Under the pieces are notes generated by a model. It saw nothing but the letters and a program-made list of their open reading frames with translations, was not told the origin of the DNA and did not search any database. From an uncultured Candidatus Bathyarchaeia archaeon (GTDB lineage: Archaea; Thermoproteota; Bathyarchaeia; RBG-16-48-13; JAGMEO01), in assembly GCA_964611975.1 (NCBI GenBank), contig CAZTBK010000001.1, positions 1-59,740 of the forward strand: a DNA stretch of 59,740 nt. The letters run 5' to 3'. Made by a program: the position numbers and the translations under genes. Every line of letters begins with the position of its first letter. Within the stretch, counting starts at the first letter, position 1. Shown here one piece after another: positions 9,647 through 56,327 of this stretch.

Positions 9647-11019
9647 AATCTACCACGCCCTATCTCTCGATAAATGATCCATTTTCTGTTTACTTCCCTA
9701 AAGTCAAGAATATGACAGCCGTCCACGATGACAACAGGCTTCTTAACGAACTTCTCAATTTCATCGATCTTTAAATCCTTAAACTTGTCATGCGCCACCG
9801 CGAAGAGTATGCAATTAACATTTTCGATGGCCTGCCAAGGCCCACTTGCTGCGTTGTATCCCATTTCTCTAATCTCATCTACGGTGAAGTATGGATCATA
9901 AACGCTAACTTTAGCGCCCTTCTTCACCAGCCTTTTTATGATCTGGTGAACTGGAGATCCCCTAGCCTCCTTAACATTTGCCTTGTAAGAGAGCCCGAAG
10001 ACGGCGATCCTGGACCTCCTTAGGGTCCTTCTGCACATCCTTAACCCATCGATAATAAGGTCGACTGTGTGCATAGGCATCCTATCGTTGATTTTCCTAG
10101 CAACCTTAGGTAGCGCAAGCTTAACCCCAACGCGTTCAGCCTCTTTGATCAAGAAATAAGGGTTTATGGGGATGCAGTGGCCACCGACTCCTATGCCAGA
10201 TGTGTGAATGTGCGAGAATGGTTGGGTGTTCGCCGCCCTCTTAGCCTCCTCAAAGTTTATTCCAGCCCTCTCGCAGAAGATCGCCAACTCGTTCGCGAGG
10301 GCGATGTTCACATCCCGATAAACGTTTTCAAAGAGTTTTATGGCTTCAGCTGTTTTTATATCATGGACCTCGATGATCCTGCCCTTAATTATGGTGCTTA
10401 AAACCGCGCTAGCGACCTTAAAACTACGCTCGTCCAGCCCAGCAACCACCCTTGGATAGCTCTGTATGTCCCTCAAGACGTTGCCAGAGGATGCCCTTAT
10501 CGGACTATAGGCTAAACCGAAGTCTCTGCCAGCTTTAAGGCCAGAAGCCACTTCGATCGTTTTCTCAACCAGATCCTCTGTTATCCCCGGTCCTACGGTG
10601 CTCTCAAAGATAATTAGGCGCCCTTTTCTCAGCTTTAATCCTATGTCCTTACAGACCTTCCTAACAGCCGAGTAATCAGGCGCCTTTCTCCTATCGATCA
10701 GAGTTGGGACTATGATTACGATCACATCACTTTCGAGGGCTGCCTTCCCAGCATCGTCTGTGGCGATGAGCTTTCCAGCCTCTACGTGCTTCCTCACTAA
10801 CCGTTGTAACCCTGGCTCTTCAACATGGCTCTTTCCACTGTTAATGGTTTCAATAACATATTTATTCACATCCACACCAATGACGTTGGCCCCAGCCTCA
10901 GCAAACAGACAAGCGGTTGGCAACCCCATCCAGCCAAGTCCATAGACACCGATGGTCAGCTCCCCGTACTTTATCGCATTTTTGATGCTTTCCGGATCCA
11001 GATTCATGATGTTTTTCAA
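9643..11019 (-). CDS. UDP-N-acetyl-D-mannosamine / UDP-N-acetyl-D-glucosamine 6-dehydrogenase (WecC/WbpA type)
   Basis: GLGWMGLPTA Rossmann motif and catalytic GVGGHCIP. 458 aa, typical of the nucleotide-sugar dehydrogenase family. Confidence 0.85.
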   Translation of the reverse strand: MKNIMNLDPESIKNAIKYGELTIGVYGLGWMGLPTACLFAEAGANVIGVDVNKYVIETINSGKSHVEEPGLQRLVRKHVEAGKLIATDDAGKAALESDVIVIIVPTLIDRRKAPDYSAVRKVCKDIGLKLRKGRLIIFESTVGPGITEDLVEKTIEVASGLKAGRDFGLAYSPIRASSGNVLRDIQSYPRVVAGLDERSFKVASAVLSTIIKGRIIEVHDIKTAEAIKLFENVYRDVNIALANELAIFCERAGINFEEAKRAANTQPFSHIHTSGIGVGGHCIPINPYFLIKEAERVGVKLALPKVARKINDRMPMHTVDLIIDGLRMCRRTLRRSRIAVFGLSYKANVKEARGSPVHQIIKRLVKKGAKVSVYDPYFTVDEIREMGYNAASGPWQAIENVNCILFAVAHDKFKDLKIDEIEKFVKKPVVIVDGCHILDFREVNRKWIIYREIGRGRF

Positions 11020-11845: not shown

Positions 11846-12517
11846 CTACGCGTGCTTACGTTTCAAAAAATAAATAGCAGCTATTGCGACGCATAGGGGG
11901 ACGGCTAACGCAACCATTTTCACTGTATCCGTAAAAATTTCTTTCTCTCTTTGCCACATGTTCGTGCTTATCATCCCCGCTTTGTAACGCAATCCTCTGG
12001 CACTAAATGTTACGTTTACCATGAATCCTGTGGCTCTATCGTAATATAGGTCTATACAATAATACGATGAGCCGCCATAGGGGCTTTCGTATATGTGTAG
12101 ATAAATCACTTCTCGAATCATGCCGGCAACAAACCTCTCAGAAACGTTCTCTATTACAGGCGCGTCCTCGGCATCGTAGATCCTGTCACCTTCATCCAGA
12201 GAGCTAGCAATAATCATAGGATAGTACCCCCAACGCTCAAACGGGTCGAGCCAACGGGTTGATTTAACATCCGTTGAATAATTCCCCGATAACACGCCCG
12301 TAACTTGATATCGTATATCAGTGCCGTTAATTGCGGTTATTGTAACTTTGAAATTCTCAGTTTCGCGAGCGCCGATAATTTTGTATTCATATATCGCCCA
12401 GTCGCCGACCTTACAACCAACCTTATATTCCTGTGAAGCAACGGAGATTATTGGTAGAGATAATAAAATTGATAAAATTAGGGACGCGTGAAAAATTAAA
12501 CCCTTAATTCTCAACAT
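11846..12517 (-). CDS. Hypothetical secreted protein with C-terminal membrane anchor
   Basis: N-terminal signal-like LIFHASLILSILLSLPIISVA and C-terminal TM VALAVPLCVAIAAIYFLKRK. N-x-S/T sequons present. Confidence 0.5.
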   Translation of the reverse strand: MLRIKGLIFHASLILSILLSLPIISVASQEYKVGCKVGDWAIYEYKIIGARETENFKVTITAINGTDIRYQVTGVLSGNYSTDVKSTRWLDPFERWGYYPMIIASSLDEGDRIYDAEDAPVIENVSERFVAGMIREVIYLHIYESPYGGSSYYCIDLYYDRATGFMVNVTFSARGLRYKAGMISTNMWQREKEIFTDTVKMVALAVPLCVAIAAIYFLKRKHA

Positions 12518-12909
12518 GTTATCGAATGTGAAGAATGCTTCACTTATATTTAATTACTCTGATCTAAAATCTCGTCGATTGATTTGCAGCCCAGAGTCCG
12601 ATGTCGCCATGTCTGTATTCTTAGTTGCTCAGGTAATCTCAACAACCATCGCTGAAGGTGAAAACCCAGCCAACAACCTTCACGCGCTAGCTAGCTGGGC
12701 TTTCGCGTCCGGTCACCGCCTTCCTTATGCTAATCTTCGTATTTGACCTCTTTTTTGCTCAAGCACTTGCACTCCACACTTCTCGTTTTTTGAAAGATCT
12801 TGCCGTCACCAATAAAGCGTACGGGGCCGCGTAACCCAGAACGCAAAAAAATTAAATGTGCAACAAAGCATATATACACTAACTTATTTGACGAATGAAG
12901 GGTATTTAG

Positions 12910-33079: not shown

Positions 33080-33703
33080 TCAGGATCGCCTTAGCGTCCA
33101 AACGCCATTCTCACACTCGAATCTTTTCTTCGGATCAGTCGCCAAGATTATGGCCAAGTGATGAGGCGTTAGCAGATCGAAACCCATCACCCTCAATCTT
33201 GTAAGGAGCTGATGCGCAGTAGACACCTTCTTTTTAGATAGGATGATGAAGGAGGCTTCCCTGACGTCCTTTATCTCAGCGATCGGAAGAGATTTTTTAA
33301 CGACCTTCACCTTCCTCCATTCTTCCATCAGTTTGTCATAGATCTGATCTGAGGCTTCGATCCTCTCATACTCGCCAAGAGCCTCGGCCAACTTCTGCGC
33401 TAGGAGATGGTAGCATAGATAGGTCTCATGATTGATGACACGAAAGTAAAAGTCATCACAAGCGCAGAAACCAACTTCTGGGATTACCTGATAATCTCTC
33501 TCCTTCCCGACAACGATCCAAACGGTCCTCCCACTCGGTTTAAAGCAGTACTTCTTAACCCTCCTATCCCTTAGCGCCTCGTAAGCATTGTTAAACCTCT
33601 CGCCAAAGATCTTAGAAAGTAGCAAAAACTGATCTTTCGTTAACTTCTTTTTCTTTCGCATAGCGTCACAAAGTTTCTGAAGGAGAGACAACTCTGTTAT
33701 CAA
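33080..33703 (-). CDS. SWIM zinc-finger domain protein
   Basis: CACDDFYFRVINHETYLCYH matches the CxC-x(n)-CxH SWIM signature. Confidence 0.7.
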   Translation of the reverse strand: MITELSLLQKLCDAMRKKKKLTKDQFLLLSKIFGERFNNAYEALRDRRVKKYCFKPSGRTVWIVVGKERDYQVIPEVGFCACDDFYFRVINHETYLCYHLLAQKLAEALGEYERIEASDQIYDKLMEEWRKVKVVKKSLPIAEIKDVREASFIILSKKKVSTAHQLLTRLRVMGFDLLTPHHLAIILATDPKKRFECENGVWTLRRS

Positions 33704-35160: not shown

Positions 35161-35214
35161 TCACGATAGCGCCTTTAATCCCTCTTCAGGTCTGATCGTT
35201 GCAAATGCGTGTGA

Positions 35215-35348
35215 TGGGGCCGCCCGGACTTTCAGCCACACCACTGTTGATGTAGCTTTTGAACCGGAGTCTAGAGGACTCTCTACTTCCTAAGCATGTA
35301 ATAAAGTTCCCGAGCCTCCAAGCCTAGACCAAACTAGCCGACGGCCCC
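35215..35348 (-). tRNA. tRNA-Pro (anticodon CGG) with two introns (anticodon loop and T-loop)
   Basis: Minus strand reads GGGGCCG-UC-GGCU-AGUUUGGUCUA-GGCU-U-GGAGG-CUCGGG[30 nt]U-CCUCU-AGAC-UCCGG-UUCAAA[29 nt]U-CCGGG-CGGCCCC-A. All stems pair. Mature length 75 nt. No encoded CCA. TATA-like TTATATTTTTTAT lies about 20-30 nt upstream. Confidence 0.85.
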
Positions 35349-35399: not shown

Positions 35400-35476
35400 C
35401 CGACACCCGTAGAATGATAATTGTTTATAGTCGTTTCTTATGATTAGGGTGTCGGAAAAATTCTTAATTTTCCGAC
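35400..35476. promoter_or_regulatory. Overlapping inverted repeats sharing a GTCGG/CCGAC core (candidate operator or alternative hairpins)
   Basis: CCGACACCC (35400-35408) pairs with GGGTGTCGG (35447-35455). GTCGGAAAA (35451-35459) pairs with TTTTCCGAC (35468-35476). A further TTTTCCGAC at 35606-35614 lies about 35 nt upstream of the nrdD-like ATG. Confidence 0.35.
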
Positions 35477-35648
35477 TTTGCATAACTCAAGCAGTCTCGC
35501 ATCAAACTAAACTCTTTTTATAGCCTTTTTTCCACACTGCTCTTTTGACATATACTATTAAACTGATTTAATATTTACAAAACCTTAGAAGAAGAAAAAA
35601 CACTTTTTTCCGACAGCCTGTTATGATAATAATGATATGTATGTTTAA

Positions 35649-37970
35649 ATGCTCCATTGGTGGATGGTAATAATTTTGGCGTATAAAAAGAGCCCTGAGA
35701 TACTCGATGCCGCTGCGGCCCCCCTCAGGCTTCAAATCCTGAGGCTCCTCAACGCTTACGGGCACCTAAGCTATAGTGAAATTATGAGTAAATCAAATCT
35801 AGATCCCTCTCGAGATGCTGGCAAATTCGCATACCACCTAAGGAAGCTGCGCCAAGCATCTCTGATAGCTGTGGACGAGAGGACAAAAAAATACAAGATC
35901 ACCCCCCTCGGTGAGGTTTTGGTCAACTTTACCAAAAAATTAGAGGCGTGCGTCGCTAAGGAAGGCAGAGTCTTCGTTCGAACCTCAAAGCTTACGATGG
36001 AGGAGTTCGACAGGAATAAGATAGCTAGAGCGTTGATTAAGGAGGCTGGAATGCCAATACGACTTGCCTATTCTATAGCCAAAGAGGTAGAGGAGAGGTT
36101 ACTCAAACTAGACGTGAGATACCTCACATCATCACTTATCAGGGAATTCGTCAACGTCGTCTTGATTGAAAAAGGGCTTCAGGAATACAGACATAAGCTG
36201 GTAAGGCTCGGCCTCCCTGCTTACGATGTAACTCAACTCATAAAGGACTCGGGCAACTCTTACCAGAGTGTCGAAGCTATAAGCGAGGCCGCTAGTGAGG
36301 GGGTGCTAAGGGAATATACCCTCCTCAATGTCCTTCCAAGAGAAATCACAGATGCCCATCTTTCAGGAGCCATACACATAAATAACATCGGTTTATGGGT
36401 GCTAAAACCATGTGATCTGCAACACGACCTCAGACCGTTCCTTCAAAGGGGGTTCAGGTCAATTCAACAAGGGCTAGTTACGGCCTTCGACCCCCCAAAG
36501 ACATTTGAAGCCGCAACCTCGCTGATTTATAACTTAATAGAGACGTCAGGGGCAGAGTTGGCCGGGGAGCAAGCCATCAATTACTTCAATATATTCTTGG
36601 CCCCCTTCGTGAAAGGCTTATCAGAAGATGACATGAAGAGGGCGCTTCGCTTCTTTATCTACAGTCTAAACACGGTGCCAACTAGCAGAGGAAGGCCGGT
36701 GGAGGTGACCATAGGAGTCGACCCACTAATTCCCAATAACTTTGAGGAGACCAGGGCCATTGGACCATGTGGCAGGGTGGTAGGTAATTACGGGGACTAC
36801 GTCGATGAATCTCGTAAGCTCCTAGACGTCTTATTGAGCATATTCCATGAGGGAAGCGTCCATGGGCACATTCTCGCTCCAAATTTAATTTTCAATATTA
36901 GACATGAGACTTTAAAGAGGAAGGAATTGGAGAATTTTTTGTTAAAAGTGCATGAACTTAGCGCAAAAAACGGAAAACCATATTTTGTGAATTTAATCCC
37001 AAGATGGCAGAATTGTGCTGTGTACTTCTCTACTGGAAATAGATTAGCGTCAGAGTGGACTAAGGACTGGGAAATCGACACGTTACGGACAGGACACTTA
37101 GGCAGTATAGCGATTAACCTGCCAAGGCTCGTATGCGAGACCCGGGAAGAGGAAGGTAAGCTCTTTAAACTCCTCAAAGATCGCATGGAGATGGCCGCAG
37201 AGGCATTGCAGATAAAATATCACGCGATACAGGAGCGTGGAAGACGATCACTCTTGCCTTCATTATTTCATCGCATTGCAAGAAAAACTTACTTTAGATT
37301 AAAAAATGCATCTAGCCTCATCGGTTTCATCGGCCTAAATGAAGCTGTTAAGATCTACACAGGAAGCAACATTTATAGATCCAAAGATAGCGCTTATTTC
37401 GCCAAAAAAATTATCGAAAAAATGTCTCTACACGCCAGGGAGTTATCGCAAAAGCTCGGTCTTCGAATAGGTGTCTCTCAGATATCCAACGGCGAGGCGG
37501 CTCAAAGGCTCGCAGAGTTAGACGTGGAAAAGTACGGTTGGAAGATCGTTAGCACGCAGGGGACAAAAGAGGCTCCCTATTATACAGATCTTGTCGCCGT
37601 TCCATTAGAAGCAAAGATCTCGCTTGAGAATCGCTTGCAAATAGAGGGCGAGTTCCATCAACTAACCTTAGGTGGGCATCTTTCTTTGATTGAACTTGAG
37701 GAATCAGAGCAAGATCCGGAAGATCTCCTTAATATGACGAGAAAAATCTGTCTTTCGTATGACGTAGGTGCATTTGCTTACACAAGGAACTTCAGCTACT
37801 GCAAAAATTGCCAAAAAGCTTTTGGTGGACATCCGGAAAAATGTCCAAACTGTAAATCCACAGATTCATTGATCTATTACGGCCGTCAGTCAGCTAAATA
37901 CAAACCGCTGAGATATTGGGCGACCTCAAAGAGGGAAGGCATGAGACGAAGGGTGCGTTACAGAGTTTAG
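35649..37970 (+). CDS. ArsR-type wHTH + ATP-cone + class III ribonucleotide reductase (NrdD)-like protein
   Basis: wHTH PLRLQILRLL...FAYHLRKLRQASLI. ATP-cone VFVRTSKLTMEEFDRNKIARAL. NrdD core AHLSGAIHINN and GSIAINLPRL. C-terminal CKNC...CPNC zinc ribbon. Confidence 0.85.
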   Translation: MLHWWMVIILAYKKSPEILDAAAAPLRLQILRLLNAYGHLSYSEIMSKSNLDPSRDAGKFAYHLRKLRQASLIAVDERTKKYKITPLGEVLVNFTKKLEACVAKEGRVFVRTSKLTMEEFDRNKIARALIKEAGMPIRLAYSIAKEVEERLLKLDVRYLTSSLIREFVNVVLIEKGLQEYRHKLVRLGLPAYDVTQLIKDSGNSYQSVEAISEAASEGVLREYTLLNVLPREITDAHLSGAIHINNIGLWVLKPCDLQHDLRPFLQRGFRSIQQGLVTAFDPPKTFEAATSLIYNLIETSGAELAGEQAINYFNIFLAPFVKGLSEDDMKRALRFFIYSLNTVPTSRGRPVEVTIGVDPLIPNNFEETRAIGPCGRVVGNYGDYVDESRKLLDVLLSIFHEGSVHGHILAPNLIFNIRHETLKRKELENFLLKVHELSAKNGKPYFVNLIPRWQNCAVYFSTGNRLASEWTKDWEIDTLRTGHLGSIAINLPRLVCETREEEGKLFKLLKDRMEMAAEALQIKYHAIQERGRRSLLPSLFHRIARKTYFRLKNASSLIGFIGLNEAVKIYTGSNIYRSKDSAYFAKKIIEKMSLHARELSQKLGLRIGVSQISNGEAAQRLAELDVEKYGWKIVSTQGTKEAPYYTDLVAVPLEAKISLENRLQIEGEFHQLTLGGHLSLIELEESEQDPEDLLNMTRKICLSYDVGAFAYTRNFSYCKNCQKAFGGHPEKCPNCKSTDSLIYYGRQSAKYKPLRYWATSKREGMRRRVRYRV

Positions 37971-45930: not shown

Positions 45931-47319
45931 TTGATCGAGAGCGAGGAAATGCAGGAGATGGCAGAGAGGTTTGAGGAGCCGATTGAGTTGATACTCGGTT
46001 CGCACTCTGCCTTAGACGCAGCCGCTGGTGCAAGGGATTATGGAATAAGGAGAATAATCTACACCACACCTGGAAGGGCGGAGGTCTATCTTTCTAATCC
46101 TATAGTTGGGGGTTCAAAGGAGGCGATAGAAGATCTACCTTCAGAGGTCAGAAGGGAGGTAATAGTTAGGAATGACCCAAGGGATATACCAAAGGGCGGC
46201 TCATGGAGGCACTGCATCCTAATCTTGGACAGGTACGATGACATTCTAAAGTTCCAGAGCGAACTTCAGGATCTTGAGTGCCTCCAGATTCCAAACAGGG
46301 CGTTCTCCGTCTACGTGGGTGGGGAACACTGTAAGCGAATAGAGAACGATTTCGCCATTCCGATAGTTGGGTCGAGAAGACTGCTAAAAATAGAGGACAG
46401 GGAAATCGAGAAAAACTATTATTGGTACTTGGAGAGAGCAGGGATACCTTGCCCAGAGGAGGTTAAGTATTCTGTGGTAGAAGACGGGCTAAGATTCAAA
46501 GAAGATATTGAACGACCACTCGTGCTCAAAGTTCCCTTTGCCTCGAGAAGATATGAGAGGGGTTTTGTTTTTGCAGCGAACTCTACGGAGCTGGAGAGAA
46601 AAGTCAGGGAGGAGATAATACTGGGGCACATAGATAAGGACGACTTGAAGATCGGGAGAGTTGAGGAGATAGTCCCTGGTGTGACTGCAAACTTCAACTT
46701 CTTTTATTCACCAATAAACGCGAAGGAAGACTGGGGTGAACTGGGAAAGTTCGTTCCCGCGTGGAAGCTTGCGAACGAGCTACTATCGATAGATGAGAGG
46801 AGGGAAACAACTCATGACGGAATTATTCGATTTCCAGCGAGGGACCAAATGAGAATGGACTGGTCCAAAACAGATTACCCTGAAGCTTTCGAGGTCACAG
46901 CTCACGCATCAATAAGCTTGAGAGAGTCCCTGTTAAGGTTTGTTTTCCCCATAGCGAACAAGTTTATTGAACTCGCACAGGAGGAGGAGCCCCCTGGTAT
47001 GATCGGTGCATATTGTCTTCAAACCTTGTTTACCTACCAGAAGAACCCGCAGTTAAGGATGAGGAATATAACGATTGGTTTGGGCGTCCCAGTTAAAGAA
47101 GGGGTTTACGATGTCCCTGAGGGAAAAGAATTCTACGATTTTATTCCCATAACACAAGACGTTGCAACTAGGCATGGGGGTGGAACGAACGTTCACATGG
47201 GAATTGGGTCACAATATGCTAACGTAAAATATCGAAGACCGATGAGCATGGGAAGCAGAATAGCTTTAGAGATAAAACGGGCTTGTAAAAAGGGAATGCT
47301 AGGTGAGATAGTTACGTAA
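45931..47319 (+). CDS. purP: 5-formaminoimidazole-4-carboxamide ribonucleotide (FAICAR) synthetase PurP
   Basis: LGSHSALD N-domain and ATP-grasp C-domain with the HGGGTN string typical of archaeal PurP (DUF1246/DUF1297). Confidence 0.8.
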   Translation: MIESEEMQEMAERFEEPIELILGSHSALDAAAGARDYGIRRIIYTTPGRAEVYLSNPIVGGSKEAIEDLPSEVRREVIVRNDPRDIPKGGSWRHCILILDRYDDILKFQSELQDLECLQIPNRAFSVYVGGEHCKRIENDFAIPIVGSRRLLKIEDREIEKNYYWYLERAGIPCPEEVKYSVVEDGLRFKEDIERPLVLKVPFASRRYERGFVFAANSTELERKVREEIILGHIDKDDLKIGRVEEIVPGVTANFNFFYSPINAKEDWGELGKFVPAWKLANELLSIDERRETTHDGIIRFPARDQMRMDWSKTDYPEAFEVTAHASISLRESLLRFVFPIANKFIELAQEEEPPGMIGAYCLQTLFTYQKNPQLRMRNITIGLGVPVKEGVYDVPEGKEFYDFIPITQDVATRHGGGTNVHMGIGSQYANVKYRRPMSMGSRIALEIKRACKKGMLGEIVT

Positions 47320-47334
47320 TTTTGGGTGATCAAC

Positions 47335-48267
47335 ATGTTTGAACCGAGGGTTTTCATTGAGAAGTCTGTAAATGAAATAAGAGACAAAACAAAAAATGAG
47401 ATGGTCATAGCAGCTTGCTCTGGTGGCGTAGATAGCACGACGGTAGCCGTCTTGGCTCAGAGGGCTGTAAGGAACAATTTACTCGCGGTTTTCATAGACG
47501 ACGGACTAAGGAGGGAAAACGAGTCTAACGAAGTTTTGAGAACGCTAAAAAATCTCGGCATAAGAGTTAGGAAGATTAACGCAGAGGATGAGTTCTTCAA
47601 AGCGCTGAAGGGGATAAGGGACGCAGAGAGAAAGAGGAAGAAGTTCAGGAAGACTTTCTACTCGATCCTTGGAAAAGTTGTGAAGAGTGAAAAAGCGAGG
47701 TGGCTCGCCCAAGGCACAATAAAGGCTGACGTGGTTGAAACCGTTGGAGGCATCAAAACCCAACACAACGTCCTTGAGCAGATCGGGATCAACCCGGGAA
47801 CGTATGGGTTTCGCCTATTAGAACCACTAAAAGAGTTGTATAAACCACAGGTAAGAATGGTGGCGCGAGAACTTGGACTGCCAGAAGAGGTTTCTGAGAA
47901 GATGCCTTTTCCGGGTCCGGGTCTAGCCATCAGGGTGCTAGGGGAGGTGACACCCGAGAGGGTTAAAATATTGAGAAAAGCCACCAAGATAGTTGAGGAA
48001 GAAACGAGGAGACTTAAGGCGTTCCAGAGCCTCGCCGTTTTGCATGAGGACAAGGCCACGGGAATAAAGGATGGCAAAAGAGTTTACGGGGACATAATCA
48101 CGGTTCGAGTGGTCGAATCCGACGATGGCATCACCGCAAGAGCGATGAGAGTACCATATGGTTTACTGAAAAAAATTTCTGAGAGAGTAATCGATGAGAT
48201 ACCGAGCGTCGTCAGATGTTTGTTTGACATGACAGACAAACCGCCAGCGACAATCGAATTTGAGTGA
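47335..48267 (+). CDS. guaA: GMP synthase subunit B (ATP pyrophosphatase subunit)
   Basis: PP-loop ACSGGVDSTT, C-terminal dimerisation domain ending PPATIEFE. ATG at 47335 (MFEPRVF). Confidence 0.9.
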   Translation: MFEPRVFIEKSVNEIRDKTKNEMVIAACSGGVDSTTVAVLAQRAVRNNLLAVFIDDGLRRENESNEVLRTLKNLGIRVRKINAEDEFFKALKGIRDAERKRKKFRKTFYSILGKVVKSEKARWLAQGTIKADVVETVGGIKTQHNVLEQIGINPGTYGFRLLEPLKELYKPQVRMVARELGLPEEVSEKMPFPGPGLAIRVLGEVTPERVKILRKATKIVEEETRRLKAFQSLAVLHEDKATGIKDGKRVYGDIITVRVVESDDGITARAMRVPYGLLKKISERVIDEIPSVVRCLFDMTDKPPATIEFE

Positions 48268-55241: not shown

Positions 55242-56327
55242 ATGTACTTGATTCGACCAGACGTAGCATCAGCCTTGAGGGACCCCTTGGTAAAAAAGAT
55301 CCTGCCGAGATACGTTAAAGCCGTTAACAACGATGTGGATGTGAACTTCCAGATCGTGAAGAAAATTGCATTTGATTTCAGCGGAGGATTGAGCTTAGAC
55401 GAGATGATGGAGTGGCACTCCAGGCTTATGGGTGAATTCTATGAAATGAGGCATGCTCTGGATCGTGGAGAGATTAAACTTAAGGATCTGGAAAGCCCGA
55501 AGCTCTCACTGCTGGACCTGAAAATCTTTATGACTGAAGAGCTTATGAGGAGCTGTGAGCTGTGCGAGAGGAAGTGCCACGTGAACAGATTGGAGGGAGA
55601 GGTTGGAGAGTGTGGAGTTGGAGATGAGTGCCTGATCTCCACCGACTTCACACATTGGGGGGAAGAATTTTACATCAGCCCATCGCACACCATATTCTTC
55701 ATGGGCTGCAACTTTCACTGCCAATTCTGTCAGAACTGGGGTATATCACAATGGTATGAAAGTGGTCAATTTGTCACACCAGAACAAATGGCTAGAAGGA
55801 TGGAATTGAAGAGGAGGGAGGGCTGCAGGAACGTCAACCTTGTTGGCGGCGAGCCCACACCGAACCTCTTGAACATCCTAAAGGCGCTGAAGCTATGCAG
55901 AGCTAACATACCCGTCGTGTGGAACAGTAACTTCTACATGTCAGAGAAAGCTATGCAAATATTAGATGGAGTGGTCGACTTATACTTATCTGACTTCAAA
56001 TACGGGAACGATGAATGCGCCAAGAGGCTCTCAAAGGTTCCAAACTACTTTGAGGTCTGCTCAAGAAACCACGTACTGGCGTCAAAACAGGCAGAACTAA
56101 CGGTGAGACATCTGATTCTGCCGAATCATTTGGAGTGTTGTACAAAGCCCGTCTTAGAATGGATAGCTGGGAATATTCGGGATAAGTGCATAGTAAACTT
56201 AATGGACCAGTACAGACCAGAGTTCAAAGCTATGGAATACAAGGAAATAAGCAGAAGAATTACGCGAGAAGAGTTTAGAGAAGCTGTAGATTACGCCGAA
56301 AAACTAAAAGTAAACTACATAACATGA
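55242..56327 (+). CDS. Radical SAM protein (PflX/COG1313-like activase homologue)
   Basis: CNFHCQFCQNW (CxxxCxxC) preceded by a Cys-rich CELCERKC...ECG segment. Confidence 0.85.
   Translation: MYLIRPDVASALRDPLVKKILPRYVKAVNNDVDVNFQIVKKIAFDFSGGLSLDEMMEWHSRLMGEFYEMRHALDRGEIKLKDLESPKLSLLDLKIFMTEELMRSCELCERKCHVNRLEGEVGECGVGDECLISTDFTHWGEEFYISPSHTIFFMGCNFHCQFCQNWGISQWYESGQFVTPEQMARRMELKRREGCRNVNLVGGEPTPNLLNILKALKLCRANIPVVWNSNFYMSEKAMQILDGVVDLYLSDFKYGNDECAKRLSKVPNYFEVCSRNHVLASKQAELTVRHLILPNHLECCTKPVLEWIAGNIRDKCIVNLMDQYRPEFKAMEYKEISRRITREEFREAVDYAEKLKVNYIT

Follow-up and report, generated by a model that had tools for sequence, protein, structure and literature searches.

A winged-helix NrdD homologue of Bathyarchaeia with substituted radical residues: a probable pseudoenzyme and candidate regulator of class III ribonucleotide reductase genes

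The described proteins closest to the one considered here are the class III ribonucleotide reductases (RNRs) of the NrdD type, including those of T4, E. coli, T. maritima, P. copri and S. thermophilus, which are built on a ten-stranded barrel with a Zn ribbon and an NLPR motif and which, in P. copri and S. thermophilus, carry an N-terminal ATP-cone. Their chemistry involves a glycyl radical in a Gly-Tyr motif (G681-Y682 in E. coli), a thiyl-radical Cys (E. coli C384, T4 C290) and a second active-site Cys (E. coli C175, T4 C79). Substitution of the Gly by Ala abolishes radical formation in glycyl radical enzymes, for which crystals of T4 NrdD G580A reportedly provide an example. A different precedent is B. 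subtilis PurR, a winged helix-turn-helix (wHTH) joined to an inactive phosphoribosyltransferase domain; ligand binding has been demonstrated for both PurR and PyrR. In bacteria, the RNR repressor NrdR pairs a DNA-binding domain with an ATP-cone, and its gene lies beside those of RNR. NrdR is reported to be rare in archaea (PMC9110341), and the corresponding regulatory niche is therefore open in them; Bathyarchaeia, like most archaea, are expected to lack it, and the transcriptional control of RNR in archaea is essentially uncharacterised. A concrete candidate for such a role is the family represented by a gene at positions 35649 to 37970 of a 59,740-nt stretch of DNA (the window) from an uncultured Candidatus Bathyarchaeia archaeon (GCA_964611975.1, contig CAZTBK010000001.1, positions 1-59,740, forward strand), the product of which (the query) is an NrdD-like protein preceded by a wHTH domain.

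An earlier interpretation made without database searches (the sequence-only reading) had suggested that this protein might be no reductase at all, and instead a pseudoenzyme derived from an RNR and fitted with a domain for binding DNA. That proposal is now strongly supported by substitution of the radical positions, by the loss of 28 of 82 columns that are invariant in canonical NrdDs, and by a score below the cutoff of the TIGR02487 equivalog model, and we regard the protein as a probable pseudoenzyme. The open reading frame (ORF) and its parts are as follows.

35649..37970, plus strand: ORF encoding a wHTH, an ATP-cone, an NrdD-like core and a Zn ribbon; 773 aa from the first ATG, uninterrupted; likely start TTG 35676, giving 764 aa
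35706..35924, plus strand: ArsR/SmtB-like winged helix-turn-helix, residues 20-92 (Pfam DUF7347, AlphaFold2, Foldseek, conservation)
35805-35849, plus strand: recognition helix PSRDAGKFAYHLRKL of the winged helix
35976..36188, plus strand: divergent ATP-cone, residues 110-180, starting VRTSKLTMEEFDRNKI (PF03477, 32.0 bits)
36255..37961, plus strand: class III RNR (NrdD) barrel core and C-terminal domain, catalytically degenerate (PF13597, AlphaFold2, Foldseek)
36405..36434, plus strand: KPCDLQHDLR, equivalent of E. coli NCMLIDLKG, with Asp256 at the C175 position
37029..37049, plus strand: finger loop STGNRLA, with Asn464 for the thiyl-radical Cys (E. coli C384, T4 C290)
37800..37853, plus strand: CxxC...CxxC Zn ribbon, retained (C718, C721, C732, C735)
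37878..37919, plus strand: degenerate glycyl-radical motif YGRQSAKYKPLRYW, with Ala749-Lys750 for Gly-Tyr

The domain order proposed earlier, an ArsR-like winged helix in about the first 95 aa followed by an ATP-cone and a class III RNR core with a zinc ribbon, was borne out by profile searches. Residues 20-92 matched DUF7347 (33.4 bits; cutoff 27.6), residues 110-180 matched the ATP-cone family PF03477 (32.0 bits; cutoff 25.8), though the cone is divergent, and residues 203-771 matched NRDD (PF13597) over profile positions 4-562 of 562 with an E value of 1.9e-96; all four Zn-ribbon cysteines (C718, C721, C732 and C735) are in the query. No Pfam or NCBIfam family other than NrdD matched the core. 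An AlphaFold2 model of the full-length protein, built on 70 homologues and evaluated by its confidence and its structural matches, had a mean predicted local distance difference test (pLDDT) score of 84, with the core above 90, and the structure prediction that the sequence-only reading had called for thus returned an NrdD fold: the top 36 PDB neighbours found by Foldseek were all NrdD (TMt up to 0.81), the best of them at TMt 0.75-0.81 and 17-18% identity, with those of T. maritima, P. copri and T4 in that range. The wHTH was modelled at pLDDT 81-98 and, when modelled alone, matched PagR, CzrA, SmtB, HlyU and ArsR (TMt 0.7-0.8), the N-terminal 90 residues superposing on these ArsR/SmtB repressors at a root-mean-square deviation of 2.2-2.9 A. 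The query differs from them in scoring below the cutoffs of the ArsR-type models (NF033788, 26.9 bits vs cutoff 55; PF12840, or HTH_20, 20.6 vs 27; PF01022, or HTH_5, 16.7 vs 22), in having no evident metal site, and in that its wHTH is fused to a 680-aa module, whereas these repressors are free-standing dimers with subunits of about 100 aa.

Translation more likely begins at TTG 35676 than at the first ATG (35649), because the resulting 764 aa are 100% identical to a database protein (P0001), an element resembling a Shine-Dalgarno sequence, GGTGGATGG, lies upstream, and the alignment of relatives agrees. In the two closest relatives, L002 (~9660-9808) and L007 (~9960-10108), the reading frame of the wHTH continues ahead of the annotated ATG, where no ATG, GTG or TTG is available to start it. 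The 729-aa public models of these relatives are for this reason start-codon miscalls, which cut off half of the wHTH. That the wHTH might itself be a separate gene or a start artefact, an objection anticipated by the sequence-only reading, is ruled out: it is in frame, with no intervening stop, and in 80/80 of the loci retrieved from GTDB the match runs from residue ~13-18 to the end.

Homologues were collected from a set of 5.8 billion proteins, which yielded 1592 matches at E below 1e-10, and residues were counted by column over 255 unique wHTH-bearing homologues. Comparison with the enzymes was made through a MAFFT alignment of 61 members of this wHTH-NrdD-like family with 43 canonical NrdDs, E. 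coli NrdD from NC_000913 included, in which a column was taken as canonical-invariant when at least 90% conserved in the canonical NrdDs. The sequence-only reading had placed Asn at the thiyl-radical position and Ala at the glycyl-radical position, and both assignments hold across profile, MAFFT and structure-based comparisons. HMMER alignments set G-N-R of the query opposite G-C-R of the T4 and S. thermophilus NrdDs, Asn464 facing the Cys; MAFFT offsets the finger loop by two residues, and in neither register does the query have a Cys there. At the C-terminus, the R-x-S-A-K-Y-x-P of YGRQSAKYKP pairs column by column in the family profile with QRITGYLV of P. copri and MRIVGYLVP of T. maritima, and MAFFT with E. 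coli NrdD places A749 on G681, K750 on Y682 and D256 on C175.

The same positions have drifted throughout the family. The column of the thiyl Cys (E. coli C384) holds Cys in 67 of the 255 homologues (26%), the rest having Thr (33), Phe (28), Leu (27), Ser (22), Asn (20) or other residues, and that of the glycyl-radical Gly (E. coli G681) holds Ala in 118, Ser in 43 and Gly in only 14 (5.5%), with other residues in some and the position deleted in 50; in this last 20% the loop is gone, many members stopping right after ...FSRI with the entire radical loop missing. The C175-equivalent column 256 is Cys in 0/255 and the adjoining column 255 in 6/255, the query's Cys255, beside Asp256, not being conserved across the family. 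All three radical residues occur together in 0/255 members. These counts show the catalytic residues to have been lost across the family, all three radical-chemistry positions being substituted in the query and unconstrained in its relatives. The losses reach beyond these positions: 28 of the 82 canonical-invariant columns are gone, HxHD, NGQxPF, PAE and the YYTN Asn among them. On TIGR02487 the query scores 319.7 bits, under the cutoff of 326.35, compared with 523, 514 and 567 bits for the canonical NrdDs encoded next to family members.

It is very improbable, in the light of these data, that the protein is still a functional class III reductase in which the radical residues are displaced, for instance to Gly745 of YYGRQ, or the radical is provided in trans. 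Such an enzyme would account for the full-length NrdD fold and Zn ribbon, for the annotation as NrdD by pipelines, and for the two members that keep both the finger-loop Cys and a Gly, the latter in RVSGRH. However, column 745, counted over 70 homologues, is Ser in 50/70 and Gly in only 6, which disposes of Gly745 as the displaced radical Gly, an alternative offered by the sequence-only reading itself; Cys is missing at the thiyl position and at the equivalent of C175 too, 20% of members lack the entire C-terminal loop, and the finger-loop Cys with a Gly-Tyr motif is found in 0/255, the one member that keeps G-Y being without the Cys. By homology and fold the query is a member of the NrdD superfamily; from the class III reductases it departs in lacking the Gly and both Cys, in falling below the equivalog cutoff, in its extra N-terminal wHTH, and in having no activase encoded nearby in the window.

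The 42 kept canonical columns are mostly structural positions, together with NLPR and the Zn ribbon; across the family the mean column identity is 62%, Asn490 of NLPR is found in 254/255 members, and the Zn-ribbon cysteines are found in 246-247/255 (~97%). In the recognition helix, G58, F60, Y62, H63 and L64 are kept at 98-100%, with His63 in 255/255, Tyr62 in 254 and Gly58 in 252. Purifying selection on the scaffold and the DNA-binding helix, relaxed on the chemistry, is the pattern expected of a pseudoenzyme and unlike that of a decaying gene. The idea of a decaying pseudogene, or of an assembly or gene-fusion artefact, has the missing catalytic residues and nothing else in its favour and can be given practically no weight: ORFs are intact in all 80 retrieved GTDB loci, the same fusion recurs without exception in these and in independent ENA, JGI, NCBI and Logan assemblies, and the 62% identity refutes decay. 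The remodelled pocket might instead bind or catalyse something else in a non-radical enzyme (nucleotide hydrolysis or transfer, for example), with the wHTH coupling that activity to DNA. About half of the canonical-invariant columns are indeed kept, including NLPR, PPK, YYT and GGH-like motifs, and the family has conserved residues of its own beside the finger loop (W470, D477 and a DWELDT motif); but no plausible new catalytic constellation was found, the former active-site columns are variable and not re-fixed, and no family in the libraries besides NrdD was matched, all of which makes a new enzyme distinctly unlikely.

The survey of orthologues that the sequence-only reading had recommended shows the fusion to be present in hundreds of species and essentially confined to Bathyarchaeia, from which come nearly all of the 255 unique wHTH-bearing homologues. 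Complete or near-complete genomes with the gene include CP122380.1 (Ca. Bathyarchaeum tardum), CP070828.1 and CP070759.1. The top 120 protein matches, all of 700-775 aa, have the wHTH, cone and NRDD architecture throughout, and those with a named source come from Bathyarchaeia and bear the label 'anaerobic ribonucleoside-triphosphate reductase'. A relative is encoded by at least 459 stretches of GTDB species-representative genomes, and the best 80 of these loci, which were those analysed, are all of Bathyarchaeia except one. In this exception (L061, DATKLC010000012.1), a contig labelled Candidatus Krumholzibacteriaceae bacterium, the wHTH-NrdD-like gene is the Bathyarchaeial one and has archaeal MBF1 and HflX as neighbours, so that an archaeal contig has probably been mis-binned. 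Two paralogues, 67% and 53% identical to the query, are present in one metagenome-assembled genome (L007 and L008 of SRP098346_co1_227), so that the family has duplicated further within some lineages. With regard to its origin, the family is nearest to the type-I Bathyarchaeial NrdD (~350-390 bits) and has an unusual VRTS cone in common with it, and for these reasons a duplication within Bathyarchaeia is indicated. Intermediate states are still visible, some members keeping the Cys, two the Cys and a Gly, and others having lost the whole Gly loop.

A second NrdD-like group (P0194, L182 1066-3141; P0210, L181 6001-8067; P0211, P0216, P0223, P0225, P0250 and P0180) apparently derives from the same archaeal NrdD type, with its VRTS cone, and like the query has no finger-loop Cys. 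It differs from the wHTH-NrdD-like family in having no wHTH, a second ATP-cone, and an NRDD core that ends at about profile position 500 of 562; in P0194, the sole sequence of the group that was inspected, the Zn ribbon is absent together with the Gly domain. A 124-aa ORF beside P0194 was considered as a detached Gly domain and ruled out, and an AsnC-type regulator and a radical SAM gene are located near P0194 in L182. This two-cone group may be another non-catalytic NrdD lineage, which suggests that non-catalytic derivatives of NrdD are more widespread than recognised.

The sequence-only reading had further suggested a regulatory function, and this idea gains new support from the placement of the gene directly upstream of canonical nrdD, often in company with nrdH-like and nrdG genes. 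Neighbours, canonical NrdDs and activases were sought within the 59.7-kb window and the retrieved loci, and a locus was taken as informative when it had at least 1.5 kb of downstream sequence (n=59). In 32/59 of these, a canonical nrdD with an intact RxTGY motif follows directly on the same strand; in L004, for example, the next gene encodes an NrdD of 691 aa whose finger loop reads QCCRL and whose SRITGYY is intact. The partner NrdDs are of three subtypes (RITGYYQRV, RVTGYYQAV and RVVGYLRPV) and score 514-567 bits on TIGR02487. In 22 loci the wHTH-NrdD-like gene and nrdD are separated by a gene for a redoxin of ~101 aa that resembles NrdH or glutaredoxin and has the motif VVVYTSxGC[PT]RC (for example L029, 12395-12700, and L039, ~12465-12770), where the partner nrdD is of the RVTGYYQAV type with a CCAYCF finger loop. 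In a Bathyarchaeum-like clade this conserved gene fills what appeared to be a spacer of 500-570 bp, and the notion that the long spacers before nrdD are regulatory deserts was consequently discarded. The intervening gene suggests that the class III RNR of these Bathyarchaeia may be redoxin-dependent. Clustering of neighbours over 82 loci gave nrdD in 36, pyrB in 26, the redoxin in 22, pyrI in 18 and NAC in 10, and L010 has a bona fide NrdG2 (190.8 bits; cutoff 131) after nrdD. A BLASTP search of all locus ORFs with E. coli NrdG found no match, the NrdG2 hidden Markov model being needed to detect the activase.

Such proximity would also be expected of a non-catalytic partner subunit that forms a heterodimer with canonical NrdD and modulates its activity or allostery, the wHTH tethering the complex to DNA or contacting proteins. 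The barrel scaffold through which dimers form is kept and modelled with high confidence, the adjacency to nrdD in 32/59 loci is tight, and one locus adjoins the replication genes RFC, GINS and MCM. We nevertheless hold this to be improbable, if less so than a new enzymatic activity, since 27/59 loci have no adjacent nrdD, the three divergent subtypes of partner NrdD are hard to fit with a co-evolving heterodimer interface, and the recognition helix is invariant, as for base-specific contacts with DNA.

We judge it rather probable that this non-catalytic NrdD paralogue works as a transcription factor, binding DNA and controlling the cluster of class III RNR genes and possibly its own gene. In the sequence of events envisaged, an NrdD bearing an ATP-cone would have been duplicated. 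The copy would have acquired an ArsR-like winged helix at its N-terminus and shed the site of the glycyl radical as well as both cysteines, the thiyl-radical one and the second of the active site; barrel fold, Zn ribbon and cone would have persisted. The wHTH would then bind DNA and regulate the nrdH-nrdD(-nrdG) cluster, perhaps with its own gene, and the former enzyme body, NrdD and cone, would serve as a module that receives a signal or oligomerises. We infer the DNA binding, the target genes and a nucleotide as the signal from the architecture and the genomic placement. In its most specific form, in which the retained pockets and the cone of the dead RNR copy read nucleotide pools and the winged helix switches nrdH-nrdD(-nrdG), making the protein the transcription factor of the anaerobic RNR operon, the proposal has, in our estimate, slightly less than an even chance of being correct.

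Such a protein would be an archaeal functional counterpart of bacterial NrdR. Both join a DNA-binding domain to an ATP-cone, are encoded beside RNR genes, and are presumed to act in feedback control of RNR. However, the DNA-binding domain of NrdR is a Zn ribbon, and that of the query is an ArsR-like wHTH attached to a dead NrdD body of ~570 aa; the query is archaeal, is 773 aa long and has a divergent cone. Because its DNA-binding domain differs and no NrdR model of NCBIfam or Pfam matches it, the query is not an NrdR, and the analogy is one of function, not of membership; nor were NrdR boxes seen. A parallel in design principle is offered by PurR and PyrR, in which a duplicated pathway enzyme was disabled in catalysis and fused to, or used as the sensor of, a regulator that binds nucleic acid and controls the same pathway. 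These differ in having an unrelated fold and belonging to an unrelated pathway step, and in that ligand binding has been shown for them and is proposed here.

Candidate operators were sought in the DNA upstream of the gene, where the sequence-only reading had pointed to repeats as binding sites.

35400..35614, no strand: CCGAC repeat cluster, window-specific, candidate operator

The cluster comprises CCGACACCC at 35400, which is a fourth, partial copy of the repeat, a palindrome GTCGGAAAA-N8-TTTTCCGAC at 35451-35476, and TTTTCCGAC at 35606-35614. The window has three exact copies of TTTTCCGAC, against ~0.5 expected in the whole 59.7 kb, and all of them fall in 165 bp upstream of the gene. The significant clustering in the window thus stands, and conservation in the upstream regions of the closest relatives does not. 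As a conserved operator the TTTTCCGAC dyad was rejected, being present in 5/78 orthologous upstream regions and in 0 spacers between a wHTH-NrdD-like gene and nrdD; a metagenome-wide scan for GTCGGAAAA-N8-TTTTCCGAC returned 94 unrelated contigs, mostly from gut, none with NrdD or similarity to the window. A second element is the 20-mer TACTTTAATTTTTTAAACTA (core TTTAA-N4-TTAAA), which is positioned ~54 bp before the start of the wHTH-NrdD-like gene and is identical in at least 17 species (among L013-L052). It recurs as an exact copy upstream of canonical nrdD in L010 (5173-5192) and as degenerate copies in eight other spacers between a wHTH-NrdD-like gene and nrdD, and 33/47 of its matches fall in ~4% of the searched sequence, a distribution suggestive of an operator shared with nrdD. 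A palindrome, TAGTTTAA-AAAA-TTAAACTA, had been taken for the conserved element and proved wrong, the real element being TACTTTAATTTTTTAAACTA.

Several observations weigh against the regulatory interpretation. The 27 informative loci that have no adjacent nrdD include the window and its closest relatives, and tblastn found no canonical NrdD, redoxin, pyrB or pyrI in the window. Neither L002 nor L007, the closest orthologues, has the TTTTCCGAC repeats upstream, and TACTTTAATTTTTTAAACTA, being AT-rich and situated between divergent genes (the other encoding tRNA-Pro), may equally well be explained as promoter architecture. No operator is conserved family-wide, despite the invariant recognition helix. 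Finally, the sensing of ATP or dATP is uncertain because the cone is weakly scored and without the canonical KRDG turn: with Phe120 and Ile125 as anchors, KRDG at residues 7-10 of E. coli NrdD falls on TSKL at T112-L115 of the query, the family reads RTS[KR] at this turn, and its cone profile matched no solved ATP-cone in PDB. Of the earlier proposal of a (d)NTP-sensing regulator, the pseudoenzyme with a DNA-binding domain is thereby upheld and the nucleotide sensing weakened. The absence of nrdD from the neighbourhood may itself be secondary. In the window, L002 and L007 there is no nrdD neighbour, and in the window NAC, MBF1 and HflX lie directly downstream; in L016 and L022 NAC is found a few genes past nrdD and pyrBI, and it therefore appears that the window lineage lost or relocated nrdD and pyrBI.

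No published account was found either of an NrdD fused to a wHTH or of a non-catalytic NrdD, and a 2026 review of glycyl radical enzymes is silent on both. Because the protein is labelled a reductase and is predicted to be incapable of radical chemistry, censuses of RNR classes and metabolic reconstructions that count its gene as an RNR would be wrong for the Bathyarchaeia, which are abundant in sediments. In evolutionary terms the family clearly exemplifies how an essential radical enzyme can be duplicated, stripped of its chemistry and put to another use, with its own parent as the probable target of regulation. If the regulatory interpretation is true, it would supply the first transcription factor derived from an RNR and, for archaea, the first described regulator specific to RNR.

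Concerning activases, the sequence-only reading was right that no NrdG-type gene is adjacent, and none was found elsewhere in the window, where the sole activase-like gene encodes a radical SAM protein of 361 aa (55242-56327, plus strand; syntenic with L002 19265-20350). This protein has Fer4_12 and Radical_SAM domains (residues 150-298) after a 150-aa N-terminal extension without an assigned domain, and it resembles glycyl-radical activases without being assignable to a family, its best NCBIfam match being NrdG2 at 49 bits, vs a cutoff of 131.

Upstream of the gene, conserved k-mers were found to belong to an intron-bearing tRNA, for which Rfam and ARAGORN gave no match in the window or the upstream region. 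This tRNA-Pro(CGG) gene (35212-35348, minus strand) has two insertions, one of 30 nt at canonical position 37/38 and one of 29 nt in the T-loop; with both removed ARAGORN calls tRNA-Pro(cgg), and with the T-loop insertion alone removed its intron mode calls the 30-nt intron. Uninterrupted tRNA-Pro orthologues stand divergently upstream of the wHTH-NrdD-like gene in L012, L018 and L022. Farther upstream, a 207-aa ORF without a Pfam match (33080-33703, minus strand) adjoins genes for a DUF763 protein and a calcineurin-like phosphoesterase and is kept upstream of the gene in at least seven related loci (for example L002, 5888-6502). At 8-10 kb downstream (45931-48267, plus strand) are genes for a DUF1246/DUF1297 protein, which we take to be a PurP-type FAICAR synthetase, and for a protein with a GMP synthase C-terminal domain, which add further nucleotide-metabolism context to the window.

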